Source: an uncultured Methanosarcinales archaeon (GTDB lineage Archaea > Nanobdellota > Nanobdellia > Woesearchaeales > GW2011-AR9). From it: 32,834 bases of DNA. Positions 1,162 to 27,931 of this stretch are shown one piece after another. Below the pieces are notes generated by a model. The model saw only the letters and a program-made list of their open reading frames with translations. It did no database searches and was not told where the DNA came from. A program made the position numbers and the translations under genes. Location: assembly GCA_964582035.1 (NCBI GenBank), contig CAZOPZ010000001.1:27879-60712 (forward strand), given 5' to 3'. Within the stretch, counting starts at the first letter, position 1, and each line of letters begins with the position of its first letter.

Positions 1162-1192
1162 AACCCCACCGCTTGCTATGGTTGGGTTTTTT
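1162..1192 (+). terminator. stem-loop followed by a T6 run (intrinsic-terminator-like / oligo-T stop)
   Basis: aaccccacc (1162-1170) pairs with ggttgggtt (1180-1188) with one C-T mismatch and a 9-nt loop. It runs into tttttt at 1187-1192. Confidence 0.35.
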
Positions 1193-1203
1193 ATTTAATA
1201 AGG

Positions 1204-1211
1204 TTTTTAAG
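1204..1211 (+). promoter_or_regulatory. TATA-like box (TTTTTAAG) 30 nt upstream of ATG 1234
   Basis: A/T-rich octamer at the archaeal TATA distance from the start codon. Confidence 0.3.
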
Positions 1212-1233
1212 ATTGATAGACAGCGAGTGAAGC

Positions 1234-2412
1234 ATGAGCCAGTTAGTGCCGCCGCACGGAGGAAAATTAATAGACAGAATTCTCACGAACCATTCGCAGA
1301 TAGAAGAGTGGTGTTCTGACCAGAACCTCTTTCGCCTCGAAGTCCCCAGCACCATCTTGGTGGAAGCCGAGAACCTTGCTCATGGCTGTTTCAGCCCGCT
1401 TCAGGGCTTTCCCGGCGAGAATGAAATCGCGTCTATCCTAAATAACTGGCGGCTCCGCGATGGAACAACTTTCCCCATCCCGCCGGTGTTCGCTATCAAC
1501 GAACAGATAAAAAATCAGCTCGAAGTGCCTTCACGAATCATCCTTACGTATCAAAACACCCCTTTCGGAATTATGGATGGGGAAGAGATTTTCCCATTTG
1601 ATAAAAAATTCTTCATGCAATCAGTATTTAAGACTGCGGACCTTACGCACCCAGGCGCCGCTCTCATCGCAAAGATGGGAAACTTCTTGCTGGCCGGAAA
1701 AGTGTCCATTTTCGAAAGAAATTCCTATCTTTTTAGGGAAGCGCTCACCCCAAAAAAAGCTCGGGAGATCTTTTCAAAAAGAGGATGGAAAACGATTGCT
1801 GCTTTCTCGACGACGAACGTGCCGCACCGAGCCCACGAATATTTGCAACGCTGTGCTTTGGAGATGGCTGATGGGCTATTTATCCATGCCCTGCAAATAG
1901 TGGGGGGGAATGAAGATGAAGCCAAATACCCCCCACAAATTATTGCCGCAACCTATAAAGATCTGATCCGCAACTATCTCCCCGAGCCGAGAATAATTTT
2001 TTCGCTCCTGCCCCAGCTCGTGCGCAGTGCCGGCCCACGCTCCAGTGTCCTCCAAGCAATCATCCGCCAGAATTTTGGCTGTAGCCACCAAATTTTCGGC
2101 CGGGATCACGAAGGGTTTTCTCGCTTTTATGGGAAGTACGAATCACAAGAGATTTTTACGAAATTCTCCGATCTGCACCTCCAGCCGCTCTGCTTCAGAG
2201 AGCCATTCTACTGCCCAAAATGTGAGCTAATAGTAACTGAAAATTCCTGCCCGCATGCACTAGGGGGCATAAAAATAAGTGGCACAGAAATTAGAAGGAA
2301 ATTGAAACAGCAAGAACTGGTAGAACCATTTATTGTCCGCCCAGAAATCCGGAAGATCCTCTCTTCTCATCAGGTTTCTCGGGAGGTATCTCCTCGAGTC
2401 AACAAAGGATAA
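1234..2412 (+). CDS. sat: sulfate adenylyltransferase (ATP sulfurylase) family protein with divergent active-site motifs
   Basis: 392 aa. N-terminal LVPPHGGKLIDR, an HRAHEYL motif, GRDHEG, and a C-terminal CPKC...CPH zinc-site pattern as in short thermophile-type Sat. The canonical FQTRNPxHRAH reads FSTTNVPHRAH (nt 1804-1836), and GRDHAG reads GRDHEG (nt 2098-2115). Confidence 0.7.
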   Translation: MSQLVPPHGGKLIDRILTNHSQIEEWCSDQNLFRLEVPSTILVEAENLAHGCFSPLQGFPGENEIASILNNWRLRDGTTFPIPPVFAINEQIKNQLEVPSRIILTYQNTPFGIMDGEEIFPFDKKFFMQSVFKTADLTHPGAALIAKMGNFLLAGKVSIFERNSYLFREALTPKKAREIFSKRGWKTIAAFSTTNVPHRAHEYLQRCALEMADGLFIHALQIVGGNEDEAKYPPQIIAATYKDLIRNYLPEPRIIFSLLPQLVRSAGPRSSVLQAIIRQNFGCSHQIFGRDHEGFSRFYGKYESQEIFTKFSDLHLQPLCFREPFYCPKCELIVTENSCPHALGGIKISGTEIRRKLKQQELVEPFIVRPEIRKILSSHQVSREVSPRVNKG

Positions 2413-2472
2413 CCGTACTGGAAATGAACATCATAAGGCTAATAAGGGGAAAGAAGCCATCCCTTCTCTAAA

Positions 2473-5337
2473 ATGGGTGAAAAAGCAATAAAGAAAGTAG
2501 CTTATAGCCCGGTGGTAGCAGATTTATTCCATTACGGCCATCTACAATCATTGCAATTTGCTTATGCGGCAGCGGATTATCATATATGCGGTATCTTAAG
2601 TGACGAAGCAGTACAGTCTTTCAGAGGAAAACCCATCGCTAATCTGCAAGAGAGGAAAGCGGTGGTTTCAAATTTAACCTGTGTTGATGAGGTGATGATA
2701 CAAACAGCTTTCGACCCGTCTGACAACCTCAAAAAGATCCAAGAGCGGTTCCCCCAGGCAGAACTTATTGTTATCAGGGGCTCGAACTGGAAAAAAGTTC
2801 CTGAGCTCCCCTATTTAAAACAAATCGGAGGAAGAATTCTGCAACACCCTTACTATGAAGAGCTTTCCGATTTTAAGGTCGTTAACAAGATTTTTGAGCA
2901 TTATGGGAAAATGTTCAGAGATTTTGAAACGTTCTCAAAATTTTTTAAGATTAATGACCTGACATCTCTAAAAGAAACAAATGGCACTACGGCTTTATCA
3001 ACGAAAGCTGAAACATTGCGGTCGTTACAGGCTGTACTGCAGCATGGGAAAATCGAAAAATCTTTTGTCTTTACCGTCGCAGAATGGGCCACAAAAGAAG
3101 AAGAGATTATGGGTAGGATACAAAAGCTGTTCCCCGAGGAGCTAGTGGTGGTGCGTAGTTCAGCAGTGCAGGAAGATAGCATCAAATCTTCACTGGCAGG
3201 ATTTTTTCATAGTGAATTGAACGTAGCGACAAAGAATAAGGAGAGCACCAGAGAAGCAGTAAACAAAGTTATCCGCACCTATGCGGAGAAAAAATCTTAT
3301 GATGCAAATAACCAGGTACTCATTCAGCGGCAGACCAGAAATGTTCAGTGTAGCGGGGTGGTTTTCACCCGCCAGCTGGAGACAAATAATCCTTATTATG
3401 TTATAAATTACGACGACCTGACTGGATTGACGGACACCGTTACCAAAGGCATGGAGAATCGAGTGGTGTATATCTCGAGATTCTGTGAAGAGAAAGATGT
3501 CCCGCCACCGCTACGGGGGGTTATTACCGCAGTGCGAGAAATAGAGTCTTTACTCCCCACTATGGGGTTGGACATAGAATTTTCTGTGAACAAACGGGGC
3601 GAGGTTATTATCTTTCAAGTGCGGCCCCTGAGCGTAAATATAAAAGTTGATCTCCCGCCAGACATCGAGATAAAAGAAAAGCTCGAAGAATTAAAAAAGC
3701 AATTTGATTATCTCTCTCAGAAGAAAGAGCATTTAAGTGGAACAAAGACCATCTTTGCTGACATGCCGGATTGGAATCCGGCAGAAATTATTGGAGACAA
3801 CCCCCACTACTTGGATTATTCCCTGTATGACTATCTTATTACAGATAGCGCCTGGCACCAGGCACGCACTTCACAAGGGTATTATAACGTCTCCCCAGCA
3901 AAATTAGTTTTTTCATTTGGCAACAAGCCCTATGTGGATGTCCGCCATAGTTTCAACTCTTTTCTTCCCGCCTCTTTGCCAGAAAGATTGAGGGAGAAAC
4001 TCATTAATTTTTACATTGATAAACTCCAGAAAAACCTGCACTTACAAGATAAAGTAGAATTCGAAGTCCTCCACACCTGCTATGATTTGACGTTCGATCA
4101 CCGATCAAAAGAGCTTCTGGCTGCAGGGTTTACCGCTGAAGAAGTTTGTTGCCTGAAAAAGTCTTTGTTACAATTAACCAACTCTCTTGTTTCTGATAGC
4201 TCTCTCAGAGATGACTTGGCGTTTATTCAAGAAAAAAAGGGGGGGAATGCTCCCCCAATCAGAATCCCCCAAGCCTGCCTAAAGCAGGCGATACAGCTCC
4301 TTGATAATTGCCGCTCATCGGGAACAGTGCAGTTTTCCCGACTGGCCAGATTAGCTTTCATTGGGAAGATTCTGGTCAAAAGTTTGGTCACAGAAAGGAT
4401 TCTTGAAGAGAGGTATTACCACCTATTTATGAGCTCTATTATAACGGTGGTATCAGAGATGAATGAGGATTTTTATTCTTTGAGCCGGGGGAGCATGGCA
4501 AAAAAATATTTCCTTGAAAGATACGGTCATCTGCGGCCGGGAACCTATGACATTACTGCTTTGCGCTATGACCAAAATGAAAATCTATTTGGGCGCTTGG
4601 TTCAGCTGCAGAAGCCGGAAAAAATTGCTTTCTCGCTTCCTCAGCAGATTCAGGAGAATATCTCGGCAACTTTTCGGGAACAGGGGCTGGCTTTTGACTC
4701 CAACACCCTATTCTTTTTCACAAGAGCGGCGCTGGAAGCCCGAGAGTTGTCCAAGTTTGAATTTACGCGAGAATTGAGTGACGCCCTGGAGCTGATTGCC
4801 CAAGCCGGAAAGATGTGGGGGTTCTCCCGGGAAAGCCTGTCCCATCTCGATGTCGACACTCTGAAGATAATAGCGGGGATAGAAGACGATAAAAAAGCAA
4901 GATCTATCCTCGAAAATATTATTGAGCATCGCAGCAAAGAGCGAAGGATAAACGACTCTTTGCTCTTACCTCCCGTAATAGCGTCGAAGAGAGACTTCGA
5001 AGTAGTTTCTTCTTATCGAGCCAAGCCAAACTTTACAACACAGAAGTCCGTGGAAGGCGAAATTATGACCCCATCTGGATTAAACAAAGGGGAGCTATCT
5101 GATTTTACAGGAAAAATTATTCTTTTAGAGAATGGTGACCCGGGGCATGACTGGATTTTCACTAAAAATCCTGCTGGTTTGATCACCAAATATGGGGGGG
5201 TCGCTTCCCACATGGTTATCCGCTGCGCCGAATTGGGAGTGCCTGCGGCTATTGGTTGTGGAGACATTTTTGACGAGATAAAGAAAGCACAAAAGGTTCT
5301 GCTCAACTGTAAAGAGCAAAAAATAACACCATGTTAA
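2473..5337 (+). CDS. fusion of a TagD-type cytidylyltransferase domain with a PEP-synthase/PPDK-like ATP-grasp kinase carrying a C-terminal phosphohistidine swivel domain (Cj1418 glutamine-kinase-like architecture)
   Basis: 954 aa. Residues 1-145 carry VVADLFHYGH (HxGH, nt 2530-2541) and ...ERKAVVSNLTCVDEV, marking a CTP_transf_like domain. The middle has VVVRSSAVQEDSIKSSLAGFFHSELNV, SGVVFT and IIFQVRPL (PPDK_N nucleotide-binding domain). The C-terminus has GGVASHMVIRCAELGVPAAIGCG (swivel His913, nt 5209-5211). There is no PEP/pyruvate TIM-barrel domain. Confidence 0.8.
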   Translation: MGEKAIKKVAYSPVVADLFHYGHLQSLQFAYAAADYHICGILSDEAVQSFRGKPIANLQERKAVVSNLTCVDEVMIQTAFDPSDNLKKIQERFPQAELIVIRGSNWKKVPELPYLKQIGGRILQHPYYEELSDFKVVNKIFEHYGKMFRDFETFSKFFKINDLTSLKETNGTTALSTKAETLRSLQAVLQHGKIEKSFVFTVAEWATKEEEIMGRIQKLFPEELVVVRSSAVQEDSIKSSLAGFFHSELNVATKNKESTREAVNKVIRTYAEKKSYDANNQVLIQRQTRNVQCSGVVFTRQLETNNPYYVINYDDLTGLTDTVTKGMENRVVYISRFCEEKDVPPPLRGVITAVREIESLLPTMGLDIEFSVNKRGEVIIFQVRPLSVNIKVDLPPDIEIKEKLEELKKQFDYLSQKKEHLSGTKTIFADMPDWNPAEIIGDNPHYLDYSLYDYLITDSAWHQARTSQGYYNVSPAKLVFSFGNKPYVDVRHSFNSFLPASLPERLREKLINFYIDKLQKNLHLQDKVEFEVLHTCYDLTFDHRSKELLAAGFTAEEVCCLKKSLLQLTNSLVSDSSLRDDLAFIQEKKGGNAPPIRIPQACLKQAIQLLDNCRSSGTVQFSRLARLAFIGKILVKSLVTERILEERYYHLFMSSIITVVSEMNEDFYSLSRGSMAKKYFLERYGHLRPGTYDITALRYDQNENLFGRLVQLQKPEKIAFSLPQQIQENISATFREQGLAFDSNTLFFFTRAALEARELSKFEFTRELSDALELIAQAGKMWGFSRESLSHLDVDTLKIIAGIEDDKKARSILENIIEHRSKERRINDSLLLPPVIASKRDFEVVSSYRAKPNFTTQKSVEGEIMTPSGLNKGELSDFTGKIILLENGDPGHDWIFTKNPAGLITKYGGVASHMVIRCAELGVPAAIGCGDIFDEIKKAQKVLLNCKEQKITPC

Positions 5338-5999
5338 TTGCCATCTCGCTCAGCGTGGGGGATAATCAACAAAAGCGAGTTCAGGACATATTGGAACATA
5401 ATTATGTTCGCTATTTTGAAAAATTTGGCGCAACGATACTCCTCATTCCCAATTCGACAGACAGCATAGCTACCTATTTTAGCCAATTCCCCATCAATGC
5501 TATCATCCTCTCTGGAGGGGGCAATATCAGTATCTCTCCCAGCACCGCCCAGAAACCCGAAAAGCCAGTCCATCCGAAACGGGAAGCGCTGGAAAGAAAA
5601 CTTATCGAAATCGCGGCAGAGAGAAACATTCCCATTTTAGGAATTTGCCGGGGGATGCAACTGATCAACATCCACTTTGGCGGTAGGCTGGTGCCCAGCC
5701 GCCATCCCATAGGGGAACACCAGATAGAGATTATCGCAAGGAAAGAAGAGCTGGGCGAGAAAGCGAGGGTAAATTCGTTCCATGATTGGGCTGTTATAAA
5801 AGAGACGCAGGCGGTGGAACTGAAACCATTTGCCTTTGCTGAAGATGGGGGCATAGAAGGCCTATACCACCCCCATTTGCCTATCGGCGGGGTGCAGTGG
5901 CATCCTGAGCGTATGTCCTTCGATGATGCACTGAATAAAATATTGGTTACAGCACTCTTAAAGAGAGAATTATTTTGGGGGCATGAGAATAGGCTATGA
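5331..5999 (+). CDS. class-I glutamine-amidotransferase-like / peptidase C26 gamma-glutamyl hydrolase (Cj1417-like candidate)
   Basis: 222 aa. PILGICRGMQLINIHFGG holds the nucleophile Cys106 (nt 5646-5648), and GVQWHPE holds the catalytic His. The start overlaps the upstream stop by 7 nt. Confidence 0.8.
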   Translation: MLIAISLSVGDNQQKRVQDILEHNYVRYFEKFGATILLIPNSTDSIATYFSQFPINAIILSGGGNISISPSTAQKPEKPVHPKREALERKLIEIAAERNIPILGICRGMQLINIHFGGRLVPSRHPIGEHQIEIIARKEELGEKARVNSFHDWAVIKETQAVELKPFAFAEDGGIEGLYHPHLPIGGVQWHPERMSFDDALNKILVTALLKRELFWGHENRL

Positions 6000-6024
6000 A
6001 AATGGGGTCTCTCTTTTACATAAA

Positions 6025-6032
6025 TTTTATAA
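6025..6032 (+). promoter_or_regulatory. TATA-like box (TTTTATAA) 30 nt upstream of ATG 6055
   Basis: A/T-only octamer whose centre lies about 27 nt from the start codon. Confidence 0.35.
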
Positions 6033-6054
6033 CCGGTAACCAAAAATCAATCCC

Positions 6055-6468
6055 ATGAGCCATTGCCCCCTCTGTGAAATCCCTGAAAAAGAACAGTATC
6101 GGGTAGTTAGGAATAATGATTTAGTATATGCAGCCATACCCTATGCTCCAATAACTGAAGGGCACGTGATGGTTCTGCCAAAACGGCACGCCCGCCTGCG
6201 GCAACTGATCCCCGAAGAATTAGTGAGCCTCAATGCAGTGATTGAAGACCTGAAAGACCGCTTGGTAGAGCTGTTCCCGGAACGGCACCCGTTCATATCT
6301 ACCATGAGCGATACGATGCACGCCTCCGTCCCCCAGCATGGCCATTACCACCTCATGCCGAGCAAATATAACCTGCGGGTTCTGTACGATTGCCGTGACC
6401 AAAGGATATTATCAAATAAGCCGGTAGAGAGATCAATCTTGGAAGAGATGGCACTCCGCCTGCGGTAA
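6055..6468 (+). CDS. HIT (histidine triad) family nucleotide hydrolase/transferase
   Basis: 137 aa. Histidine triad HGHYHLMP (nt 6337-6351), an N-terminal CPLCE, and GHVMVLPKRH. Confidence 0.85.
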   Translation: MSHCPLCEIPEKEQYRVVRNNDLVYAAIPYAPITEGHVMVLPKRHARLRQLIPEELVSLNAVIEDLKDRLVELFPERHPFISTMSDTMHASVPQHGHYHLMPSKYNLRVLYDCRDQRILSNKPVERSILEEMALRLR

Positions 6469-6594
6469 GGGAAAAAGCACATCGTAGAACGTAGGAGTGG
6501 GAGAAGTGCAGGATTACGATAACAAGCAACGCTGGGGGTTCCACGAACCTTTGTATAGCGCAGAAAGAGAATATTATTCTTTCGCTAAACTCCC

Positions 6595-7401
6595 ATGAAA
6601 GCCATCATCATTGCGGGGGGACTGGGAACCCGGCTATACAAATACACCAAAGACGTCCCGAAAGGGATGCTTACTTTCTTGGGGAGATCACTTCTGCAGC
6701 ATCAGGTGGATTGTTTTAGAAGCTGCGGCATAAGCAACATTGTTATCGTGAGAAAACATCTTGCGGACAAAATAAGCATCAAAGGCGTACGCTACATCGA
6801 TGAGGACCCTGCTTTAGAAGGCAATATGGTTCGGGGCTTATTCCATGCCCGGGGGGAGTTCGACGATGACATTATCATGACATATGGCGATGTCATATTT
6901 GAAGATAAAGTCATCCAGGTAGTCATTAACGACCCCTGCAGCGTTGGCTGTGTTGTTGATTTGGATTGGCGGGATTATTGGATAGCTCGATCAGGAAGTG
7001 ATAAAGAGGATACGGAAAGCTTGGTTTTAGAGGGGAAAAAAATTATTTCTTTGGGAGTGCCAGATCCAGACCCTGAAAAAATAGATGGCCGGTATGTCGG
7101 AATAGTCAAATTCTCCAAATCGGCGTTCTCTCCGCTTGAAGTAATATTTGACCGGCAGAAAAAATTATTCTGGGATAAAGATGAAAAATGGTATCGATCG
7201 AAAAACTTCAAGAGAGCATATATGACAGACTTCCTGCAATGCCTCATTGATAATGCCGTTCCTGTAGAAGCCATACCAATCTCCCATGGTTGGCTGGAAT
7301 TTGACACGAACGAAGATTATGAACGAGCGGTAAAATGGGCAAAAGAAGGGACTTTACACAGGTTCTACAGGCCTTCAAATGCCTCCAGCTCCCTTTTCTG
7401 A
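6595..7401 (+). CDS. LicC/GlmU-N-type nucleotidylyltransferase (sugar-1-P or phospho-base; Cj1416-like candidate)
   Basis: 268 aa. MKAIIIAGGLGTRL...PKGML signature, YGDVIF, and a C-terminal WLEFDTNEDYERA as in LicC-type cytidylyltransferases. Confidence 0.8.
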   Translation: MKAIIIAGGLGTRLYKYTKDVPKGMLTFLGRSLLQHQVDCFRSCGISNIVIVRKHLADKISIKGVRYIDEDPALEGNMVRGLFHARGEFDDDIIMTYGDVIFEDKVIQVVINDPCSVGCVVDLDWRDYWIARSGSDKEDTESLVLEGKKIISLGVPDPDPEKIDGRYVGIVKFSKSAFSPLEVIFDRQKKLFWDKDEKWYRSKNFKRAYMTDFLQCLIDNAVPVEAIPISHGWLEFDTNEDYERAVKWAKEGTLHRFYRPSNASSSLF

Positions 7402-8747
7402 TACCCTATCGCCAAAGTTCTTAACACAGGATGAATGGCATAGTATATTTCGCCCCCGGCGTTCTGTCGTTCTCCGCAGAGAGCGCCTTGCTGGGCCAAA
7501 GCCCCGGCGATATCAGCTAGGACTTGCGAGCGGATATAGGGGTCGTAGATCCGGCTAAAATCGACGTCGGCTGCTGGTGGGGGGAAATCACGAGAGGTGA
7601 TAATATCCCCCGCATCAATCTGAGGGGTCATAAAAAAACCTGTTGCTGTGCACTGCGCTTCAGAAAGAAAGCTATAGATAAACGTCGTGCTTCCACGGAA
7701 CTCCGGTAATCTCCCTGGGTGGACATGAATAAGCTTTTTTCCCGTCGAAAGAATGTCTTTTTTCAGTATGCCAGAGCCGCTAAATATGAAATATTCCTCA
7801 GCTGCTTGCCGCAAAGCGCTAATGACTTGAGCTTCGTTAAACCCTTGGGCGGGTATCAATTTGTAGGGAATATTCTCTTGGCGTACCGTTTCAATAAAAG
7901 ACTTTCCGGGATCAAAATATCTTTTTTCTCCAAGAATTGTCTCCAAACCTCCCTCGACCGAGGTTTTGTCTTCCAAGATAATCGCGGCGTGCGGCTTGTA
8001 GCCCGCCTGCAGCAGCCCTTGAATGTATGCTCTGGCCCGAATCTTGTCTTGCACGATCATCCCCAGATCCTCTATTGTTCTTTTGTCAACTGTTATTTTA
8101 TCGACTGCCAATGGGGACTGCGGCAATAAGCGTTGCGTAAGGGGCCGCTCTTTCAGATTACCATAGAGCCCGCGGATAGCATCGAGCTCGCTACTCAGGA
8201 CGGAAGAGAACACCAGAGCATAAGCATTATCTACCTCTTCAGCGCGGGAGATAATCTTATCATTGACTTTCAGTAAAGTGCTTAATGATTGCAGGCTATT
8301 GGTTGAGCAATAATGGCTGCTTAAAGCTCTCGCGAGACGGAGATAATGCTCAAGGTCAGCGTCAGCAGCACTGCAAACAGAAAGATTCTGGCCGCTGTAG
8401 GCATTCCTTACTTTCTGTAGCTCTGCTTTTCTGCGCAACTTTTTTAACAAAGTTTCATCCCCCCCAAATACGGCATCTAGGAGCTGAGAAGTGGCAATCT
8501 CCCCCGGACCGAGCTCTGCCCGCCCTGCGAGATGGTGCTGCGCTGGAACTCCGGCTGAAGATTGGTTTAAAAGAGGTCTTAAGTTCGCTAAAGCTTGTCT
8601 TCTTGTTTGAAGATAATCCCTGATAAATTCGTTCCCTTGGTATTCTACAAAAGGATAAGGCACCGATAGCCGCTGTTGTTCTGGAGTAGCATAAAAATAC
8701 AAAGGGGGCATGAGAAAAGACATAAGAAAGCTTCTTCTCAGGAGCAT
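7365..8747 (-). CDS. two-domain protein with an unknown N-terminal region of about 250 aa and a formyltransferase-fold C-terminal domain
   Basis: The C-terminal KLIHVHPGRLPEFRG...MTPQIDAGDII matches the Formyl_trans_N core (xINxHxSLLPxxRG...D). I take the start at Met63 of the track ORF (8747). The longer 8933 start would overlap the divergent GT4 gene. ATGs at 8723 and 8711 are alternative starts. Confidence 0.55.
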   Translation of the reverse strand: MLLRRSFLMSFLMPPLYFYATPEQQRLSVPYPFVEYQGNEFIRDYLQTRRQALANLRPLLNQSSAGVPAQHHLAGRAELGPGEIATSQLLDAVFGGDETLLKKLRRKAELQKVRNAYSGQNLSVCSAADADLEHYLRLARALSSHYCSTNSLQSLSTLLKVNDKIISRAEEVDNAYALVFSSVLSSELDAIRGLYGNLKERPLTQRLLPQSPLAVDKITVDKRTIEDLGMIVQDKIRARAYIQGLLQAGYKPHAAIILEDKTSVEGGLETILGEKRYFDPGKSFIETVRQENIPYKLIPAQGFNEAQVISALRQAAEEYFIFSGSGILKKDILSTGKKLIHVHPGRLPEFRGSTTFIYSFLSEAQCTATGFFMTPQIDAGDIITSRDFPPPAADVDFSRIYDPYIRSQVLADIAGALAQQGALCGERQNAGGEIYYAIHPVLRTLAIGYQKRELEAFEGL

Positions 8748-8795
8748 TATAAATCTTCGTGAACTGTTGTCCAGACTATCATTTCTTCGATAAGA

Positions 8796-8803
8796 TTTAA
8801 ATA
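8796..8803 (+). promoter_or_regulatory. TATA-like box (TTTAAATA) 29 nt upstream of GTG 8825
   Basis: A/T-only octamer in the 77-nt divergent intergenic region. Confidence 0.3.
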
Positions 8804-8824
8804 AGCTCTTTCTGCCCACCGCTC

Positions 8825-9985
8825 GTGAACATCGCACTGGTCGCGCCCGGATTTCTCCTGAACAGAAAAGAGGCCACATGGATAACGCTGGTTGAATTGG
8901 CAAAAAGATACCAATCTCTGGGGAATCGGGCATTTATCATTGCCCGAAAACACGCCTCTCAGCCACAAATAGAGAGCGTTGGAGGAGTTAAAGTTTATCG
9001 CTTTTATTCGGGGAAATACGGAACCCAATTATTCAATGCAGGGTGGAGCCTTAAGCTCCTGAAAAAAAAAGAAAAACTCGGCCAGCTCCTGGTTCATGGT
9101 TTCGGTTCAAGCTCTTTTTTTGCGTTCAGTACGTTCCTCGCCGGTAAAGCGGTGAAAGCGCCAACAGTTTACACGATAAAATCGCAGCCAAAAAAAGATT
9201 GGATTGATCGGCTGTTCTGCCCCAGCTTGAGAATGGTAAACACCATTACCGTCCCCACGGAGGTTATGAAAAATAGGATTGTAGCCACTTGCCCGCCCGA
9301 AAGGATCAGAGTGATTCATTCGAATATCGACACGGCAAAATTCAAGCCGCGTGACCGACAGTGTCTCAAAGAGAAATATGGCTTAGCAGATAAACAGCTT
9401 ATTCTGTACTACGGGGCCATTCGGAAAGAAAAAGGGGTCGACTGCCTTTTGCAGGCCATGCCGGAGGTGCTAAAGCAATTCCCCCGTGCTCTTTTTTTCT
9501 TGGCCATCCGCTCCAAAGCCTTAGCAGCGCGGGAAAAATATTGGTCTTTCGTAAAAAAGATGGGATGTGAAAAAAAATGCATTATTACCGTAGAGGATCT
9601 CCCGATCGAAGAATATGTGAGCATGGCGGACCTAGTGGCGTTAGCATACCCGACCATGGCAGGAACTGAAGGAAACCCCTCCTGCCTTTTGGAAGCAATG
9701 GCCAGCAAGACGCCGGTAATAACAACCAATCTGCCAGAATTAAGAGAGATAGTCGTGCCGGATGAAGAAGTCTTAATGGCGCAGCCGGGGGATGCACATT
9801 CTCTGGCAGAAAAAATAAGCCAGTTGCTTACTGATAGTTTACTCCAGAAAAAAATGGTCGAAAATGCTTTCATGAAATCCCAACAGTTTAGTACGGAGAT
9901 TATTGCCGATCAATTTCTGAAGCTGTATGAGAAGCTGTTGAGAAAATGGGAGGGTGTTGGGGAAGATACCGGCAGACGATCGTGA
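8825..9985 (+). CDS. GT4-family (Glycos_transf_1, GT-B) glycosyltransferase
   Basis: 386 aa with a GTG start. The C-terminal EGNPSCLLEAMASKTPVITTNLPELREIV is the EX7E-type retaining GT-B signature. Confidence 0.85.
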   Translation: MNIALVAPGFLLNRKEATWITLVELAKRYQSLGNRAFIIARKHASQPQIESVGGVKVYRFYSGKYGTQLFNAGWSLKLLKKKEKLGQLLVHGFGSSSFFAFSTFLAGKAVKAPTVYTIKSQPKKDWIDRLFCPSLRMVNTITVPTEVMKNRIVATCPPERIRVIHSNIDTAKFKPRDRQCLKEKYGLADKQLILYYGAIRKEKGVDCLLQAMPEVLKQFPRALFFLAIRSKALAAREKYWSFVKKMGCEKKCIITVEDLPIEEYVSMADLVALAYPTMAGTEGNPSCLLEAMASKTPVITTNLPELREIVVPDEEVLMAQPGDAHSLAEKISQLLTDSLLQKKMVENAFMKSQQFSTEIIADQFLKLYEKLLRKWEGVGEDTGRRS

Positions 9986-10002
9986 AATAAGCTGAAGCGT
10001 TG

Positions 10003-11496
10003 TTATTTTTTTCGAAGCACCATGGAAGAATACTGCCGTATCTCTTTAAATCGAAGAAGCCCGAAGAGGTAGGCCAATACTCCGTAAACCACCAGGCTGC
10101 CTCCCGCAGAAATAAGCATCTCGAATACCACTGGAAAATGCAGCAACTCTTCTATAATTGAAACAGTCCCAAAAAAAGAGAGAGATAGCGGGAGGAGAAG
10201 AAGCCACTCTTTCCAGGGATAGGGGGAACGAAGATACCGGGAAACATGGTATGTAGACAGAATAAACATCAAGACGTAACTGCCAACGGTAGCTAAAGCT
10301 GCTCCCCGCAGGCCCAGGCGGGGAATGAAGAGAAAATTGAACAGAATATTGAATAAAGCGGCTAAGAGAATTATTACAGTGACAGTTTTGGGCTTGCCAA
10401 TCCCTGCGATGAGGACGGTGTTTGTGGAAGCGACCACATAGAAAAGCATACCGACCATGAGCAGCTGTAAAATGGGGTAACCAGCAGCATACTCTTCACC
10501 AAATAAAGCCCGCACCAAAAATTGAGCATAGTATATGACAGTAAGGATAACCGGAGTAACAAAGAGAAAGACATAGCGATGCAGAATAGTTATCCCCATT
10601 GATAGGCGAAAAGTATCTTTCTTCACCCACAATTCGCAGGAAAGAGGGAATAACACTGCCCCAATTGCTTTGCTAAACAAAGAGAAAATAAGCGCCGACG
10701 GCAAAATGACATTGTAAATTCCCACGTCGCTAAGGCTAACAAAATACGTCAACATAAGGGTATCAACATACCCAATAATCTGGCCGCCAATATCCGTCAA
10801 AATGACGGGTATGCCAAAAGAAAAAAGATTTTTTGTTATCCCCACAAAATTTTCGGCTTTCTGCTTAATGAGGGGCCTGCCTATTCTGAGGAGAAACGGA
10901 GAATAGATTAAGAAGAGCAGGGGGCTTACTAAAACAAAAGCTATTACGGGAGCAAAAACCCAAAAATTCAGTTTTAAAAAGACTAAGATCAGAATAAGAA
11001 CGATCACATTCTTCAAAAATTCCACAGAAGAATAAAGAAACATTCTTTGGAACCCCTGAAAAATTTGCTTGGTGATGATAAATAGGATGCTAAGCAGCAC
11101 ATAAAGAACTAAGATTTTCAAGATGAGAGAGGCCAGAGGATTCTTAAAATAATGCTCTCCAAGATAGCCAGCTAAGAGGAAAAAAAACATGCCAAAAATT
11201 ATTGAACTGCTCAGTTGCATGGAAAAGACAGATAAAATTGCCGTCTTTATCTGGCCATATCTCTGCAATGCTCTAAACTCTGAAATATATTTCACCAAAG
11301 CTTGGCCTAAGCCGAGGTCTCTAAAGAACAGGAAAAAAATGATGAAAGTAAATACAGCATAAAAGAGCCCATACTCTTCCGGCTGAAGTCTCCTCGCCAA
11401 GACTATACGGGTGATGTAAGCAGTTACGGCAGCAAGGAAGCCAAAAACAAAAGCTGTGCTTACCCCCCGAACGGCTTTCTGTGTATAGCTGACCAC
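10003..11496 (-). CDS. MOP/Wzx-type oligosaccharide (polysaccharide) flippase
   Basis: 497 aa with about 12-14 hydrophobic segments. The N-terminus VRGVSTAFVFGFL...ARRLQPEEYGLFYAV...LGLGQALVKYISE is typical of the polysaccharide biosynthesis protein family. Confidence 0.8.
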   Translation of the reverse strand: MVSYTQKAVRGVSTAFVFGFLAAVTAYITRIVLARRLQPEEYGLFYAVFTFIIFFLFFRDLGLGQALVKYISEFRALQRYGQIKTAILSVFSMQLSSSIIFGMFFFLLAGYLGEHYFKNPLASLILKILVLYVLLSILFIITKQIFQGFQRMFLYSSVEFLKNVIVLILILVFLKLNFWVFAPVIAFVLVSPLLFLIYSPFLLRIGRPLIKQKAENFVGITKNLFSFGIPVILTDIGGQIIGYVDTLMLTYFVSLSDVGIYNVILPSALIFSLFSKAIGAVLFPLSCELWVKKDTFRLSMGITILHRYVFLFVTPVILTVIYYAQFLVRALFGEEYAAGYPILQLLMVGMLFYVVASTNTVLIAGIGKPKTVTVIILLAALFNILFNFLFIPRLGLRGAALATVGSYVLMFILSTYHVSRYLRSPYPWKEWLLLLPLSLSFFGTVSIIEELLHFPVVFEMLISAGGSLVVYGVLAYLFGLLRFKEIRQYSSMVLRKK

Positions 11497-11518
11497 CCGC
11501 CAACCAGTAAGAAGAACG

Positions 11519-11528
11519 TTTTTAAAAG
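11519..11528 (-). promoter_or_regulatory. TATA-like box (TTTTTAAAAG on the plus strand) centred about 28 nt upstream of the flippase ATG (11496)
   Basis: A/T-rich 10-mer at the archaeal TATA distance. Confidence 0.3.
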
Positions 11529-11645
11529 TAATGATTCTTGGCTCCCCTCTGGCATTTTGACAACCCTCCGCGCAGAACAGCGGCAGGGTTTATCTTTTAC
11601 GACTTTAAGACCATATTGGGGATTCACCAGCTAAACACCCATACC

Positions 11646-11655
11646 TTTTTAAAAA
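11646..11655 (+). promoter_or_regulatory. TATA-like box (TTTTTAAAAA) centred about 28 nt upstream of GTG 11679
   Basis: A/T-only 10-mer. It supports the internal GTG start of the GT2 gene. Confidence 0.3.
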
Positions 11656-11678
11656 GTAGTAATCGCCGGAAAGATAAA

Positions 11679-12437
11679 GTGAACAAAACTACAGTCGGAC
11701 CTCATCTCGACATAAGTGTCGTTACAATTACCTATAACGAACGGGAGAACATCCGCGAAGTTATTGTCATTGTGAACAAAATTTTTCAGAACCATAGCCT
11801 GGTCGGGGAGATTATTGTGGTTGATGACAGTTCTCCCGACGGAACTGCAGACGTAGTTTTGGAACTAAAGAAAGAGTACCCAAATACTACTCTGCTAAAG
11901 AGGCCGGCAAAAATGGGTGTAGGAAGCGCCTATCGGGATGGCCTGGCCCTTGCTAAAGGGGAGATAGTCATCCCTTTGGACGCCGATTTAAGCCATTCGC
12001 CGGAAGTTATCCCGGAAATGTGCCGCATTGCCAAAGAAGGGAAGATTGGGTGGGGATCGCGGTACTTAGGAAACACCCGTTTTGAGACCGACTTTCCTCA
12101 CAAAGTAGGAACTTTTCTCTTGAATCGCTGGGTAAGCACAGTCCTAAACACTAAAGTTCTGGACAACAGCATGGGATATTTTGCGATGAAGAGGGAGCTC
12201 CTCAATCGCCTCCTTAATCACGGAAAAGAAAAAAATATTTATCCTTTTGGCCGCATTTTATACGGAATACCCCTCGCAGCCTTAGCTCAACAACTCCAAA
12301 TCCCCATCACAGAAGTAAAGACTCATTATAACCGCCGAAAATATGGGAAGACAAAAATTCCATTTCTCCGGGGGCTAAAAACGGTATTGGGGGATATGGG
12401 CTATGCTTTGGAGCTTCGCAACAGGCTTCGCCGATAA
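11679..12437 (+). CDS. GT2 polyprenol-phosphate hexosyltransferase (Dol-P-Man/Glc synthase-like), soluble type
   Basis: ISVVTITYNERENI...IIVVDDSSPDGT...PLDADLSH has the GT-A DxD pattern. The track ORF begins at TTG 11538, but its first 47 aa are low-complexity and non-homologous. I prefer GTG 11679, which has a TATA-like box at about -28. Confidence 0.8.
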   Translation: MNKTTVGPHLDISVVTITYNERENIREVIVIVNKIFQNHSLVGEIIVVDDSSPDGTADVVLELKKEYPNTTLLKRPAKMGVGSAYRDGLALAKGEIVIPLDADLSHSPEVIPEMCRIAKEGKIGWGSRYLGNTRFETDFPHKVGTFLLNRWVSTVLNTKVLDNSMGYFAMKRELLNRLLNHGKEKNIYPFGRILYGIPLAALAQQLQIPITEVKTHYNRRKYGKTKIPFLRGLKTVLGDMGYALELRNRLRR

Positions 12438-12447
12438 TTGTCAAAAA

Positions 12448-13176
12448 ATGGCTGATTCTCGGCCGTTTTACGATAGGATCTGGGCTTCGCAAGAAGCGGC
12501 GAAGAAAGAGGAGCGGATGCTGTTTCTGCGCCAACAAGCGATTGAACACTCGTACTCCCTCCTGGGAGACCTCCGCAATAAGACCCTCCTCGAGATTGGC
12601 AGCGGGTCTGGAAAACAAGCTGTCTTCTTTGCAAAGCAAGGCGCGAAAGTAAGTGTTGTGGACATTTCCTCAGAGAGCCTAAAAGCGGTTTTGCGGATGG
12701 CAGAAAAGCAGGATGTAGCTGTTCAGAGCTATCAGATGAACGCTGAAAAAATGGGCTTTGAAGATGAAACGTTTGACCGAGTGTATATAAATTCAGTATT
12801 AATGCACGTAGAGCAGGAAAAAGTGTTACAAGAGTGCTCTCGAGTATTAAAGCCCGGCGGAAAGGTGATCATCGTGGAGCCTCTTCGCTATGCTCCTTTT
12901 GTTCAAATTTATCGCTTTCTGTCCTCATACCGCAAGATGTGCCCTCACTATGCTACCCCGAAGATGTTTACGAAAAATAGCCTTTTTTTTACAACGTTCT
13001 CCCATGAAGAATTTTATTCTCTCTCTTCAGCCTTGCTTCCGATGGGGTATAGTACAATTCCTCTCCTCAAGAAGATGTATACCTTAACAAGCAAAGCTGA
13101 CCGGGCGCTTCTTAAGAGAATCCCTTTTTTAAAAAAACTGTGCTGGATTTCTGTGGTTTGTTATACGAAGTTATGA
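12448..13176 (+). CDS. class I SAM-dependent methyltransferase
   Basis: LLEIGSGSGKQAVFFAKQGAKVSVVDIS (motif I) and VLKPGGKVIIVEP. I prefer ATG 12448 (MADSRPFY...), which lies just after the upstream stop at 12437. The track start at 12403 overlaps the upstream gene. Confidence 0.8.
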   Translation: MADSRPFYDRIWASQEAAKKEERMLFLRQQAIEHSYSLLGDLRNKTLLEIGSGSGKQAVFFAKQGAKVSVVDISSESLKAVLRMAEKQDVAVQSYQMNAEKMGFEDETFDRVYINSVLMHVEQEKVLQECSRVLKPGGKVIIVEPLRYAPFVQIYRFLSSYRKMCPHYATPKMFTKNSLFFTTFSHEEFYSLSSALLPMGYSTIPLLKKMYTLTSKADRALLKRIPFLKKLCWISVVCYTKL

Positions 13177-22891: not shown

Positions 22892-23803
22892 ATGCTCGAA
22901 AACGCAAAAAGAAAGTTCCCCCCTTGGTTAAGGGTGCCGTTCAGTTCAGCTCGCCAGTTTCAGAAAACGGTCGGCGTGATTGCGGATCTCCAGTTGAACA
23001 CTATCTGTGAAGAAGGCGCCTGCCCGAACAAAGCGGAGTGCTTCAGCCATGGAGTTGCCACGTTCATGCTCTTAGGGAAAACCTGCACCAGAAACTGTAA
23101 ATATTGTAACGTTCCTCCGGGAAAACCACGCCCCCTTGATGAGAGTGAGCCTCTTCGAGTTGCTGAAGCCGTACGAAGATTGGGCCTTTCTTATGTTGTC
23201 ATTACGTCAGTAAATCGCGACGACCTGCCGGTTGGCGGAGCTTCACAGTTCATCCAGACAATACAAGAGATAAAGCGGGTACAGCCTTCCTGTAGCATTG
23301 AGACCCTCATCCCCGATTTTAAAGGAAACGAAAAAGTGCTTAAAAATATTTCTACACTCCCTATTGAAGTGCTGAGCCATAATATTGAGACGGTTCAAGA
23401 AATTTTCCCTCGGATACGGCCGCAGGGGAACTATTTCCTTTCACTAGCCGTATTAAAAAAAATGAAACAAAGTAATCCTTTACTGAAAACCAAATCTGGC
23501 TTCATGCTGGGATTGGGAGAGACCGCAGAACAAATCGAACAGGTGTTAACCGATCTCCAAAAACAAGGATGTGACTTTGTTACCATCGGCCAATATCTGC
23601 CCCCCTCAGCCCAGCATTATCCTCTCTCTCGATACTATTCGCCGGAAGAATTTCAACTTTGGAAAGAGAACGCTTTGCAAAAAGGCTTTCTGCATGTGGA
23701 AGCGGGCCCTTTGGTGCGAAGCTCCTATCGCGCCGATAGGCTGATAGCCTACACTGCTCCCCCCACCAAAACAGATTATTGCGAGGTGAAGAGATTTGCC
23801 TGA
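22892..23803 (+). CDS. lipA: lipoyl synthase (radical SAM)
   Basis: 303 aa. CEEGACPNKAEC (auxiliary cluster) and CTRNCKYCNV (radical-SAM CxxxCxxC). Confidence 0.93.
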   Translation: MLENAKRKFPPWLRVPFSSARQFQKTVGVIADLQLNTICEEGACPNKAECFSHGVATFMLLGKTCTRNCKYCNVPPGKPRPLDESEPLRVAEAVRRLGLSYVVITSVNRDDLPVGGASQFIQTIQEIKRVQPSCSIETLIPDFKGNEKVLKNISTLPIEVLSHNIETVQEIFPRIRPQGNYFLSLAVLKKMKQSNPLLKTKSGFMLGLGETAEQIEQVLTDLQKQGCDFVTIGQYLPPSAQHYPLSRYYSPEEFQLWKENALQKGFLHVEAGPLVRSSYRADRLIAYTAPPTKTDYCEVKRFA

Positions 23804-25184
23804 GCAGCAGCATCCAATCTATGATGCAGCCATCATAGGAGGTGGCCCTGCAGGATATAGCGCGGCGCTCCGCATTGCGCAGTTGGGGGGAAAAGCGTGC
23901 CTTATTGAAAAAGATAAGGTGGGGGGCACTTGTGCTACTGTGGGCTGCATACCCACGAAAGCGCTCAGCCATCTTGCAGAATTTTCAAAAACAGCACAAC
24001 AGATGAAAGCTTTGGGGATTCGGAAGGGGGGCGGCTCTTGGAATTTTCAGAAAGTGCAGGCCCATATATGGCAGATTGTCGCAGATGCAGTGGCCGGCAT
24101 TCAATGGACACTCAAAAACCAGGGCATACCTGTAATTAGGGGAACTGCCGTCGTTACTGGAAAAAATGAAGTTGCAGTCTTAAATCAGGATGGCAAAGCC
24201 GAAACAAGCCTTGTTGCAAGAAACATTGTTTTGGCGACCGGATCATCCCCCAGACGGCTAGAACATCTCCCCCCCATCCTTTCAGTCATAACCAGTGATG
24301 AGGTGCTCTCCTTAGAAGCCTTGCCGAAAACTTTAGGCATCATCGGCGGAGGCTACATCGGGCTGGAATTTGCATCCATCTTTAGTGCTTTAGGAACAAA
24401 GGTGCATCTTATTGAAGCATTGCCAACCATTGCGCCCACAGAAGAACCGGAAATTGCCGATGCTATTCAGCGTTTTTTAAAAAAGTCCGGAGTAGAGGTC
24501 ATCACGAATGCCACAATAGGCACAGTACAGGAAACCAAATGTTCCCTCTCTCTCACTATCATCAGCGGGAATGATTGTCGATCACCACCTCTACAGGTTG
24601 AAAAGCTCCTCGTCGCCGTCGGAAGAGTTCCGAACCTGCCGGTCGAAGAGCTGCATCGCCTGGGTATCTCTTACACGCCAGCAGGCATCAGCGTGAATGC
24701 CTACCTAGAAACAAATGTTCCTGGAGTATATGCCATTGGAGATGTCATCTCCACGCCCCGGTTAGCGCATGTGGGTATCCATGAGGGGAGAGTCGCCGCT
24801 GAGAATATCATGGGAAAAAGAAGAGCAATATCGTATGCAACAATTCCCTCATGCATGTACACTGTTCCAGAAGTGGCCAGCATCGGCCAACGGGAAGGGT
24901 CTGTAGGAAGATGCTTTTTCTTAGCCAACGGGAAAGCCAAGGCCATGCACCGGACGGAAGGATTTATAAAAGTGTACCTCAAACAACAAAAACTAGTCGG
25001 AGCAGCAATAGTCGGATGGCAAGCTTCAGAACTCCTGGGGGTTGTTGCGGGTTTTTTAGGAGAAGATGTAGAAGAGATCAAGCAAAAGATTATAGCGCAC
25101 CCCACCCTCTCAGAAATGATTCCTGAAGCGCTGATTGATGCGGGACGGCAAGTTTCCTCCTCCCCGAAGCCGCTCTGGTCATGA
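23796..25184 (+). CDS. lpd: dihydrolipoyl dehydrogenase (E3)
   Basis: 462 aa with a TTG start overlapping the lipA stop. YDAAIIGGGPAG (FAD), GGTCATVGCIPTK (redox disulfide, nt 23931-23948), GGGYIGLEF (NAD) and the C-terminal HPTLSE. Confidence 0.9.
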   Translation: MPEQQHPIYDAAIIGGGPAGYSAALRIAQLGGKACLIEKDKVGGTCATVGCIPTKALSHLAEFSKTAQQMKALGIRKGGGSWNFQKVQAHIWQIVADAVAGIQWTLKNQGIPVIRGTAVVTGKNEVAVLNQDGKAETSLVARNIVLATGSSPRRLEHLPPILSVITSDEVLSLEALPKTLGIIGGGYIGLEFASIFSALGTKVHLIEALPTIAPTEEPEIADAIQRFLKKSGVEVITNATIGTVQETKCSLSLTIISGNDCRSPPLQVEKLLVAVGRVPNLPVEELHRLGISYTPAGISVNAYLETNVPGVYAIGDVISTPRLAHVGIHEGRVAAENIMGKRRAISYATIPSCMYTVPEVASIGQREGSVGRCFFLANGKAKAMHRTEGFIKVYLKQQKLVGAAIVGWQASELLGVVAGFLGEDVEEIKQKIIAHPTLSEMIPEALIDAGRQVSSSPKPLWS

Positions 25185-25970: not shown

Positions 25971-25992
25971 ACCGAATAAAAGGCTTTTTTTG

Positions 25993-26949: not shown

Positions 26950-26967
26950 GAGAATAAACACAAAAAA

Positions 26968-27930: not shown

Positions 27931-27931
27931 C

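Follow-up and report, generated by a model that had tools for sequence, protein, structure and literature searches.

A predicted phosphoramidate-donor cassette with an ATP-sulfurylase-like accessory protein in a glycan gene cluster of a DPANN archaeon

A gene cluster that probably represents a glycan-decoration cassette was identified in a 32,834-nucleotide (nt) stretch of DNA, referred to here as the window (GenBank assembly GCA_964582035.1, contig CAZOPZ010000001.1, positions 27,879 to 60,712 of the forward strand), which is deposited under an uncultured Methanosarcinales archaeon and placed among the Woesearchaeales in GTDB. Judged from its sequence, this cassette would generate a nucleoside-diphosphoramidate (P-N) donor from L-glutamine, with an accessory protein related to ATP sulfurylase (designated here as Sat-like) acting on a phospho-anion. 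In Campylobacter jejuni, the donor for O-methyl phosphoramidate (MeOPN) decoration is produced by the L-glutamine kinase Cj1418, the CTP:phosphoglutamine cytidylyltransferase Cj1416, the gamma-glutamyl-CDP-amidate hydrolase Cj1417 and the CysC-like cytidine diphosphoramidate kinase Cj1415. A first-pass annotation of the window had described five consecutive genes, and all five open reading frames (ORFs) were indeed located on the plus strand (Table 1), encoding the Sat-like protein, a kinase fused to a cytidylyltransferase domain, a C26 hydrolase, a HIT protein and a LicC-type nucleotidyltransferase. The reported overlap between the C26 start (ATG at 5331) and the kinase stop codon (5335-5337) was also present, the two genes sharing 7 nt ('ATGTTAA').

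The triad of kinase, cytidylyltransferase and C26 hydrolase had been proposed to follow the C. jejuni chemistry, with the domain fused to the kinase as the Cj1416 counterpart; this held for the kinase and, going by its best model, for the hydrolase, but not for the fused domain. The kinase domain (amino acids (aa) 171-952) scored 841 bits on NF004508/PRK05849 (cutoff 501), the model common to the window kinase and to proteins named glutamine kinase, compared with at most 52 bits on phosphoenolpyruvate (PEP)-synthase models and 29 bits on the rifampicin-phosphotransferase model, i.e. the two affinities that would be at odds with a glutamine kinase. Pfam reported the PPDK_N and swivel domains and no PEP-utilizers_C, in agreement with the annotated absence of a PEP/pyruvate domain. 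The swivel motif GGVASHM (5194-5214) carries a histidine (His913) that is invariant in 35 homologues, and homologues with 45-52% identity bear the JGI name 'glutamine kinase'. For the C26 protein, the top NCBIfam model was NF045546 (gamma-glutamyl-CDP-amidate hydrolase) with 101 bits against a cutoff of 250, the next family scoring 58 bits, and its triad is represented by 'GICRGMQ' (Cys106; 5640-5660) and 'WHPE' (His191 and Glu193; 5898-5909). The LicC-type protein encoded by the fifth gene was shown to align over its full length with the Pseudomonas protein P0440 (25% identity, E=9e-31), and the cluster to which P0440 belongs at 90% identity is called 'L-glutamine-phosphate cytidylyltransferase' by JGI; curated models matched neither of these two proteins. 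The fused domain displayed no similarity to P0440. Because the LicC-type protein aligns with P0440 and is syntenic, whereas the fused domain does not align, the fifth gene is taken as the Cj1416 equivalent. The logic of Cj1418, Cj1417 and Cj1416 represents the best reading of the predicted core, and the first-pass interpretation as a whole is partly supported.

In a single scan of species-representative genomes, kinase relatives were detected in at least 576 genomes, bearing out the first-pass suggestion that the potential for P-N chemistry reaches far outside Campylobacter. The 80 best loci, none of which derives from Campylobacter, were analysed by tblastn with the window proteins over 10 kb on either side. 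A C26 gene was observed in 74 and a LicC-type gene in 70 of the 80 loci, nearly always in the order kinase-C26-LicC and in bacteria as well as archaea. In many bacteria and some archaea (Haloferax, Pacearchaeota), a gene resembling adenylylsulfate (APS) kinase comes next, which corresponds to the order Cj1418-Cj1417-Cj1416-Cj1415. A Pseudomonas locus with all four Cj1415-Cj1418-like genes exhibited the same NCBIfam pattern as the window, and members of the cluster of its APS-kinase-like protein bear the JGI name 'cytidine diphosphoramidate kinase', next to the LicC-type name given above. The window kinase is 36-40% identical to bacterial kinases, and its closest relative (L001/L004; 60% identity) is found at loci without Sat-like and HIT genes. 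The occurrence of the cassette outside Campylobacter, archaeal elements included, is already implied by KEGG/JGI-style names and by a 2024 preprint on Borg elements. Closer to the window, the independent metagenome contigs L084/L085 match the block 1189-12374 collinearly (87% nt identity), and every gene in this block is under purifying selection, with ratios of non-synonymous to synonymous substitution (dN/dS) of 0.07-0.23. Collinear independent contigs, purifying selection and the preserved core order in distant taxa together indicate that the five-gene arrangement is not due to chance.

Two of the surveyed layouts deserve separate mention. Compact bacterial cassettes were observed at L065 (7120-13791; Pseudomonas morbosilactucae), L082 and L083, the L065-type order being a TagF-like Glyphos_transf protein (355 aa), an APS-kinase-like protein, a short formyltransferase-fold protein, glutamine kinase, C26 and the LicC-type protein. 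The TagF-like enzyme of these gammaproteobacteria is a plausible candidate for a transferase using CDP-amidate; as a universal phosphoramidate transferase it was rejected, being confined to Pseudomonas and Alteromonas loci and absent from the window. At L001 (855-8219), a phosphonate-decoration set lies directly upstream of the cassette and encompasses fusions of PEP mutase with NTP_transf_3, of NTP-transferase with aminotransferase and of NTP-transferase with methyltransferase, as well as two CDP-alcohol phosphatidyltransferases; this set has no counterpart in the window.

The Sat-like protein aligned over its full length with the ATP sulfurylase MtATPS of the archaeon Methanothermococcus thermolithotrophicus (8A8D; 293 bits), but scored below both curated sulfurylase cutoffs (PRK04149, 365.6 versus 387; TIGR00339, 278.3 versus 322.95). 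Sulfurylases possess the conserved motifs QXRN, HXXH, VGRDHAG and PFR; Gln195 hydrogen-bonds sulfate, Arg197 interacts at many points with both sulfate and the alpha-phosphate, and the backbone NH of Ala293 touches a sulfate oxygen (PMC6607087). In the Sat-like gene, the segment FSTTNVPHRAHE (1804-1839) carries STTN (1807-1818) in place of QXRN, 'FQTRNVPH' of 8A8D being replaced by 'FSTTNVPH', and 'GRDHAG' is replaced by GRDHEG (2098-2115), such that VGRDHAG reads FGRDHEG, with Ala293 changed to Glu and the flanking Val to Phe. The HXXH motif is present as HRAH. With the homo-oligomeric ATP sulfurylases MtATPS (8A8D) and yeast (1G8H), the protein shares the three-domain architecture with a PUA-like domain, HXXH, GRDH, Asn198 and the Zn-ribbon cysteines, and it differs from them in QXRN to STTN, D232 to Lys, RYAGP to RSAGP and GRDHAGV to GRDHEGF, and in having no APS-kinase partner in the window.

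These replacements characterize a distinct clade. Among the best 120 database matches, STTN, STSN or STGN is present in each of the 17 closest, mostly together with GRDHEG, while the remainder comprise 87 QTRN, 7 HTRN and a few other variants. Comparison of the 17 clade members with 120 canonical sequences revealed only seven fixed differences (Q192S, R194T, D231K, Y265S, H274Q, V295F and A304S), which include Q195, R197 and D232 in yeast numbering, all three being part of the published active-site model; T193, N195, the HXXH histidines, GRDH, the Zn-ribbon cysteines and the distal arginines are kept in both sets. The clade was monophyletic in 99 of 100 neighbour-joining bootstraps (96 of 100 after masking of the diagnostic columns) and is small; at 50% identity, it accounts for approximately seven representatives of the best 150 Sat relatives. 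A decaying pseudogene was rejected in view of a dN/dS of 0.14 and the retention of all nucleotide- and pyrophosphate-binding residues. The nucleotide and pyrophosphate machinery (HXXH, GRDH, Asn) seems to have been retained while the sulfate pocket was apparently rebuilt, with Gln replaced by Ser, Arg by Thr, Tyr by Ser, Asp by Lys and Ala by Glu. With three bulky residues made small and two new charges, the anion pocket looks enlarged and repolarized, and would be a better fit for a larger phospho-anion, possibly a zwitterionic one, than for sulfate. The Sat-like protein has probably ceased to activate sulfate.

Other Sat variants were encountered in the same searches. Protein P0267 (651 aa) is a Sat-like protein with an 'STSS' motif and a C-terminal region of ~290 aa without a Pfam match. 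Fusions of ~755 aa with a pyruvate-kinase-like N-terminal half and a Sat domain, carrying HTRN (Gln to His), are encoded near CT-fused glutamine-kinase cassettes (CT denoting the cytidylyltransferase domain on the kinase) at L016 (14405-16672), L018 (2332-4620), L021 (10603-12876) and L054 (6159-8420). An APS-kinase-like gene directly follows the HTRN fusion at L021 and L054, lies ~2.8 kb away at L018 and was not detected at L016. Sequences of the H[TS]RN type account for ~48 of the best 150 Sat representatives.

In all ten independent contexts recovered, members of the STTN clade were accompanied by a glutamine-kinase cassette or by formyltransferase/HIT partners. In the window, the order is Sat-like, CT-kinase, C26, HIT and LicC, with a formyltransferase-fold gene on the opposite strand, and the same order is found at L084/L085 (93% identity). 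Locus L086 contains Sat-like, CT-kinase, C26, LicC and formyltransferase-fold genes with two HIT genes, and L092 a Sat-like followed by a CT-kinase gene. The Sat-like gene stands at the distal end at L006 and L089 (kinase, C26, HIT, LicC, formyltransferase-fold, Sat-like) and at L090 (kinase, C26, LicC, formyltransferase-fold, Sat-like). Bacterial locus L088 reads kinase, APS-kinase-like, C26, LicC, a 239-aa protein, formyltransferase-fold, HIT and Sat-like, followed by a glycosyltransferase, a 342-aa APH-like protein and two methyltransferases. At L093, formyltransferase-fold, HIT and Sat-like genes are consecutive, and at L091 formyltransferase-fold and HIT genes precede an ORF (P0130) in which a Sat-like domain is fused to the kinase at the position of the CT domain. 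The Sat-like protein had initially been regarded as a stand-in for the CysC-like kinase; this idea was abandoned, since L088 encodes both, and the 60%-identical relatives L001/L004 carry neither Sat-like nor HIT genes. The literature searched contained no account of the STTN clade or of its association with HIT and formyltransferase-fold enzymes, and the Sat-like/HIT/formyltransferase module appears to be undescribed, the cassette core itself being of a known kind.

Genes of the 'Sulfatase' family were repeatedly observed beside glutamine-kinase cassettes (L084, 8706-9887; L042, 11963-13051; L036, L012, L023, L028 and L090), though not in the window, and in Thaumarchaeota such a gene directly follows the LicC-type gene in cassettes without Sat. 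The encoded proteins lack the C/S-x-P-x-R motif and have a Thr nucleophile context. A 'sulfate theme' based on these neighbours was rejected: the missing formylglycine motif and their presence beside Sat-less cassettes point to phosphotransfer rather than sulfate, and the proteins are candidate phospho(ramidate) transferases.

The HIT protein encoded between the C26 and LicC-type genes contains CPLC (6064-6075) and HGHYHLM (6337-6357; aa 95-101), the latter conforming to the histidine triad HxHxHxx. It scored 28 bits on Pfam HIT (cutoff 21.5), its PDB matches are HIT, Hint and Ap4A-phosphorylase proteins, and its gene exhibited a dN/dS of 0.07. Orthologues are located beside the Sat-like gene or the cassette at L084, L086 (two copies), L088, L089, L006, L091 and L093, and the HIT proteins of Sat-like loci form a recognizable subgroup, distinguished by the signature T(L/M)(T/S)DTxH...HxHxHxxPS and a CxLC motif in the N-terminal part. 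Hint/Fhit-type HIT proteins, with which the window protein shares the HxHxHxx motif and small size while differing in this subgroup signature and in its occurrence with a Sat-like gene, are nucleoside phosphoramidases and also exhibit adenylylsulfate-ammonia adenylyltransferase activity (EC 2.7.7.51), such that known HIT chemistry acts on both APS and P-N nucleotides. AMP-NH2 chemistry is mentioned in PMC6429109.

The formyltransferase-fold gene on the minus strand (P0241 in Table 1) is a sixth member of the unit, partly beyond the span of the five genes first described; it is convergent with the LicC-type gene, the 3' ends of the two sharing 37 nt. Although its Pfam Formyl_trans_N score of 22 is under the cutoff of 26.1, the C-terminal half of its AlphaFold model (predicted local distance difference test, pLDDT, 89) matches Fmt, ArnA and WbkC (E=1e-10 to 1e-8; Foldseek best 7e-11), whereas the helical N-terminal domain of ~210 aa gave no match. 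In the family, HxHPGxLPxxxGST, His335 and Asp370 are invariant and the catalytic Asn is replaced by His333. Long, short or split forms were observed in 23 of the 80 loci and in every well-covered Sat-like context, and in Pseudomonas, Leptospira, Alteromonas and Desulfovibrio the gene lies between the APS-kinase-like and kinase genes. Sugar and tRNA N-formyltransferases (WbkC, the ArnA N-domain and Fmt) share with it the C-terminal-half fold, the triad His and Asp and a folate-loop-like HPGxLP motif. In contrast to these enzymes, the window protein has the Asn-to-His replacement and the novel N-terminal domain, which is a separate gene in bacteria, and its family shows genomic linkage to glutamine-kinase cassettes, not to genes for amino sugars. 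N-formylation of a nucleoside-diphosphate (NDP)-linked amide is an attractive, if speculative, idea for its function.

The CT domain is, as far as its sequence indicates, an additional module that is non-homologous to the LicC-type enzyme. It contains an HxGH motif ('FHYGH', 2527-2541), scored 54 bits on the NCBIfam model rfaE_dom_II and matched ethanolamine-phosphate cytidylyltransferase (ECT, 3elb) and the Fom1 cytidylyltransferase domain (5x3d) in the PDB. Motif and domain length are shared with the HxGH cytidylyltransferases ECT, TagD (1coz), Fom1 and RfaE domain II (E=1e-9 to 1e-12), which act on small phospho or phosphono compounds; in contrast to these, the window domain is joined to a glutamine kinase. 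The fusion is not the new configuration that it had been assumed to be, as it occurs in >100 clusters at 90% identity, mostly from Woesearchaeota and Nanoarchaeota (DPANN) and also from Lachnospiraceae, Bacteroidales and Synergistales, and in 36 of the 80 species loci. APS-kinase-like genes were found within 10 kb of 6 of the 36 CT-fused loci, compared with 27 of the 44 unfused loci (Fisher p=8e-5, kinship ignored), an anticorrelation that was also observed when at least 8 kb of flank was required (Fisher p=2e-4, kinship ignored). Nevertheless, an APS-kinase-like domain is joined to the CT and kinase domains in triple fusions (P0038 and P0039). The well-flanked locus L010 (9998-17885) carries CT-kinase and C26 genes but lacks a LicC-type gene within 10 kb, a hint that the CT domain may perform cytidylyl transfer by itself; an FAD oxidoreductase and an STT3/AglB oligosaccharyltransferase are encoded downstream, and the latter links this cassette to archaeal N-glycosylation. 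The simplest, though tentative, idea for the role of the CT domain is that it carries out a second cytidylyl transfer, with the kinase product as acceptor.

In the pathway proposed here from homology and synteny, the kinase domain would phosphorylate the amide nitrogen of glutamine via phosphohistidine His913, the LicC-type enzyme, possibly together with the fused HxGH domain, would couple phosphoglutamine to CMP from CTP, and the C26 hydrolase would remove glutamate to yield CDP-amidate, a donor of this type then presumably being used by the surrounding glycan machinery. A tblastn search of the window with three APS-kinase-like queries detected no CysC-like kinase (best E=0.59), which may lie elsewhere in the genome; as the window lacks such a 3'-kinase, the donor may be used unphosphorylated. 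Based on the rebuilt sulfate pocket and the retained nucleotide and pyrophosphate machinery, the Sat-like enzyme would nucleotidylate a larger phospho-anion of the pathway, most likely phosphoglutamine or a phosphoramidate derivative, rather than sulfate, and the HIT and formyltransferase-fold enzymes may modify or exchange the nucleotide-linked amidate. A more tentative extension, which we regard as possible rather than probable, is that an ATP sulfurylase was recruited into P-N metabolism as Cj1415 was from APS kinase. The STTN enzyme would then make an APS-like adenosine (or cytidine) diphospho-amidate from the kinase product or a derived phosphoramidate, with the HIT and formyltransferase-fold enzymes leading to an N-modified (e.g. 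N-formyl) phosphoramidate decoration on surface glycans of archaea and some bacteria. Neither nucleotidylation of a P-N product by a sulfurylase relative nor an N-modified phosphoramidate glycan was found described in the literature searched. The methyltransferase gene at 12403-13176 (first annotated as 12448-13176), which had been put forward as a speculative supplier of the O-methyl group, produced weak and sporadic matches in 8 of the 80 loci and was discarded, as it shows no conserved association with the cassette.

Several observations weigh against the proposed P-N cassette and its phospho-anion-directed Sat-like protein. The Sat-like and HIT genes are dispensable for the core, being absent from the 60%-identical L001/L004, and the Sat-kinase fusion is known from one metagenome contig. 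The three nucleotidyltransferases (Sat-like, CT domain and LicC-type) exceed the needs of the known pathway and have no distinct steps assigned to them. NF004508 is itself titled 'hypothetical protein', and the C26 score lies under the NF045546 cutoff, that of the four-gene Pseudomonas cassette being lower still (74.7 bits). The comparison with C. jejuni is indirect, with NCBIfam models and JGI names as proxies for Cj1415-Cj1418, and the counted loci are not phylogenetically independent. A transferase that would attach P-N groups to a glycan was not identified among the window genes, and we know of no P-N glycan from any archaeon.

An ordinary ATP sulfurylase, providing APS for glycan sulfation and merely adjoining a phosphoramidate or other CDP-phospho cassette, was the alternative raised in the first-pass annotation, and would account for the strong family-level matches to ATP-sulfurylase models, the full-length alignment with 8A8D and the intact HXXH and GRDH motifs. 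'Sulfatase'-family neighbours at L084, L086, L090 and L092, a faint Sulfotransfer_3 match at L088 and the HTRN-type Sat with nearby APS kinase in other DPANN cassettes would also be in keeping with it. It is nevertheless considered unlikely, being disfavoured by the loss of QXRN, in which both sulfate-contacting residues (Gln and Arg) are replaced, along with the exchange of D232 for Lys, the scores under both curated cutoffs and the NCBI name 'hypothetical protein'. Moreover, no APS kinase was detected in the window, the clade was always found with glutamine-kinase cassette genes or formyltransferase/HIT partners, once even fused to the kinase, and the neighbouring 'sulfatases', with their Thr nucleophile context, are phosphoesterase/phosphotransferase-like.

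It is rather improbable that the cassette activates another phospho-substituent, i.e. a non-glutamine amide or amine, or a CT-made CDP-alcohol or phosphonate-type donor, such that its product would not be a phosphoramidate. The CT domain does resemble ethanolamine-phosphate, glycerol-phosphate and Fom1 phosphonate cytidylyltransferases, the closest relative (L001) has PEP-mutase/aminoethylphosphonate-type genes just upstream, identity to the bacterial kinases is limited to the range given above, and the CysC-like kinase is missing from the window. However, the kinase exceeds an equivalog-type cutoff common to bacterial cassettes with four Cj1415-Cj1418-like genes, the gamma-glutamyl-type C26 gene directly downstream in 74 of 80 loci is sensible only if a glutamine-derived amide is cleaved, and the triple fusions with a CysC-like kinase connect the CT-fused form with the pathway of those cassettes. 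A similarly slim prospect is that the Sat-like, HIT and formyltransferase-fold proteins serve in salvage or proofreading of mis-made or surplus nucleoside phosphoramidates, through pyrophosphorolysis by the Sat-like enzyme and hydrolysis by HIT. HIT/Hint proteins are nucleoside phosphoramidases and sulfurylases are readily reversible, and the module is both dispensable in the closest relative and rare (1 of 80 species loci). Against such a role stand the tight coupling of the genes in operons, where starts overlap stops (HIT-Sat at L088 and L093; formyltransferase-Sat at L090) and the fusion of a Sat-like domain to the kinase, which suggests substrate hand-over in the biosynthetic direction; the formyltransferase fold, furthermore, has no obvious salvage role.

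The features of the cassette are listed in Table 1. NCBI carries identical proteins as MBI1968634-38, from a metagenome-assembled genome (MAG) of Candidatus Woesearchaeota archaeon.

Table 1. Coordinates of the cassette and adjoining features in the window, with the NCBI names of identical proteins
Feature	Position	Strand	Basis or remark	NCBI name
ATP-sulfurylase-like nucleotidylyltransferase of the 'STTN' clade (Sat-like)	1234..2412	+	Pfam PUA_2 and ATP-sulfurylase (E 1e-63)	hypothetical protein (MBI1968638.1)
Fusion ORF, CT domain and kinase	2473..5337	+	CTP_transf_like aa 17-90, PPDK_N aa 179-312, PEP-utilizers swivel aa 880-948	adenylyltransferase/cytidyltransferase family protein
N-terminal HxGH cytidylyl/adenylyl-transferase domain (CT), aa 1-160 of fusion	2473..2952	+	Pfam CTP_transf_like	
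Predicted Cj1418-type L-glutamine kinase domain, aa 171-954 of fusion	2983..5337	+	ATP-grasp, family-specific middle region, phosphohistidine swivel domain	
Cj1417-type class-I amidotransferase/C26 hydrolase, presumed gamma-glutamyl-NDP-amidate hydrolase	5331..5999	+	Pfam Peptidase_C26/GATase	gamma-glutamyl-gamma-aminobutyrate hydrolase family protein
HIT-superfamily protein, accessory component	6055..6468	+	Pfam HIT and CwfJ_C_1	HIT domain-containing protein
LicC-type NTP transferase, Cj1416 homologue	6595..7401	+	Pfam NTP_transf_3/NTP_transferase; motif 'AGGLGTRL'	phosphocholine cytidylyltransferase family protein
Formyltransferase-fold protein P0241, 452 aa, conserved accessory component	7365..8723	-	Weak Pfam Formyl_trans_N	
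GT4-family glycosyltransferase	8864..9985	+	Pfam Glycos_transf_1/Glyco_transf_4; divergent from formyltransferase-fold gene	

The position of the GT4 gene is kept in the closest relatives L004 and L084, and the cassette is surrounded in the window by genes for a flippase, several glycosyltransferases (GT2 and GT4), a GDP-mannose dehydratase, DegT and PMT-like membrane proteins. A search for tRNA genes detected none. Upstream of the cassette, region 1-1188 has a G+C content of 31%, compared with 42-50% in the rest, and encodes on the minus strand (37-594) a 185-aa C-terminal fragment of a GT-B protein with weak Epimerase_2/Glyphos_transf matches. Collinearity with the 87%-identical L084 ends at 1189, and L084, L086 and L092 carry two alkaline-phosphatase-superfamily genes at this place. 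Further downstream within the glycan cluster (22892-31117, plus strand), a complete lipoyl-dependent machine is encoded, comprising lipoyl synthase, an E3-like oxidoreductase, a LipB/LplA-like protein, E1alpha, E1beta and an 'E2' (27932-29050), and is followed by a DegT aminotransferase and a GFO/IDH/MocA oxidoreductase. In the 'E2', lipoyl and E3-binding domains are combined with a PglD-like hexapeptide N-acetyltransferase domain that replaces the catalytic domain, a fusion which suggests that an acyl group is passed straight from the lipoyl arm to an amino sugar.

Genes for the core are distributed over hundreds of species, among them DPANN archaea with very small genomes, suggesting that P-N groups may be a widespread and overlooked surface chemistry, and the presence of the cassette in cultured organisms (Parabacteroides goldsteinii DSM 19448, Haloferax elongans ATCC BAA-1513, Pseudomonas chlororaphis and Leptospira ilyithenensis) makes this idea directly testable. 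In P. goldsteinii, the kinase is CT-fused and there is no CysC-like gene close to it. The Sat-like clade, whose members annotation pipelines currently call 'sulfate adenylyltransferase' or 'hypothetical', provides a clean case of a sulfate-activating enzyme with an apparently rebuilt anion pocket. Should its substrate prove to be a P-N anion, the correspondence between the activation of sulfate (Sat, CysC) and that of phosphoramidate would be complete, and a new enzyme activity would be added.

To our knowledge, phosphoramidate decoration of glycans has been proven experimentally in Campylobacter only, where it has a bearing on serum resistance, on recognition by phages and on vaccine design. 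With respect to three of the four enzymes, the window cassette is predicted to belong to the family of the C. jejuni MeOPN donor pathway, the CysC-like kinase being the one not found in the window. Both systems have an ATP-grasp and swivel-His kinase without a PEP domain, a C26 gene directly downstream and a LicC-type transferase. In contrast to C. jejuni, the window represents a DPANN host and displays an additional HxGH domain on the kinase, extra Sat-like, HIT and formyltransferase-fold genes, no conserved methyltransferase pair and no recognized transferase of the Cj1421/22 type (the Cj1421/22 sequences themselves were not compared). A predicted MeOPN-like cluster has also been reported for genes 308-311 of Cobalt Borg (bioRxiv 10.1101/2024.11.05.622173). 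That cluster was described with a PEP-mutase-cytidylyltransferase fusion, and neither a Sat-like/HIT/formyltransferase module nor a CT-kinase fusion was reported for it. It has in common with the cassettes described here that an archaeal-associated glutamine kinase, a cytidylyltransferase and a hydrolase are encoded beside phosphonate and glycan genes, as is likewise the case for the window relative L001, with its PEP-mutase-NTP-transferase gene upstream.

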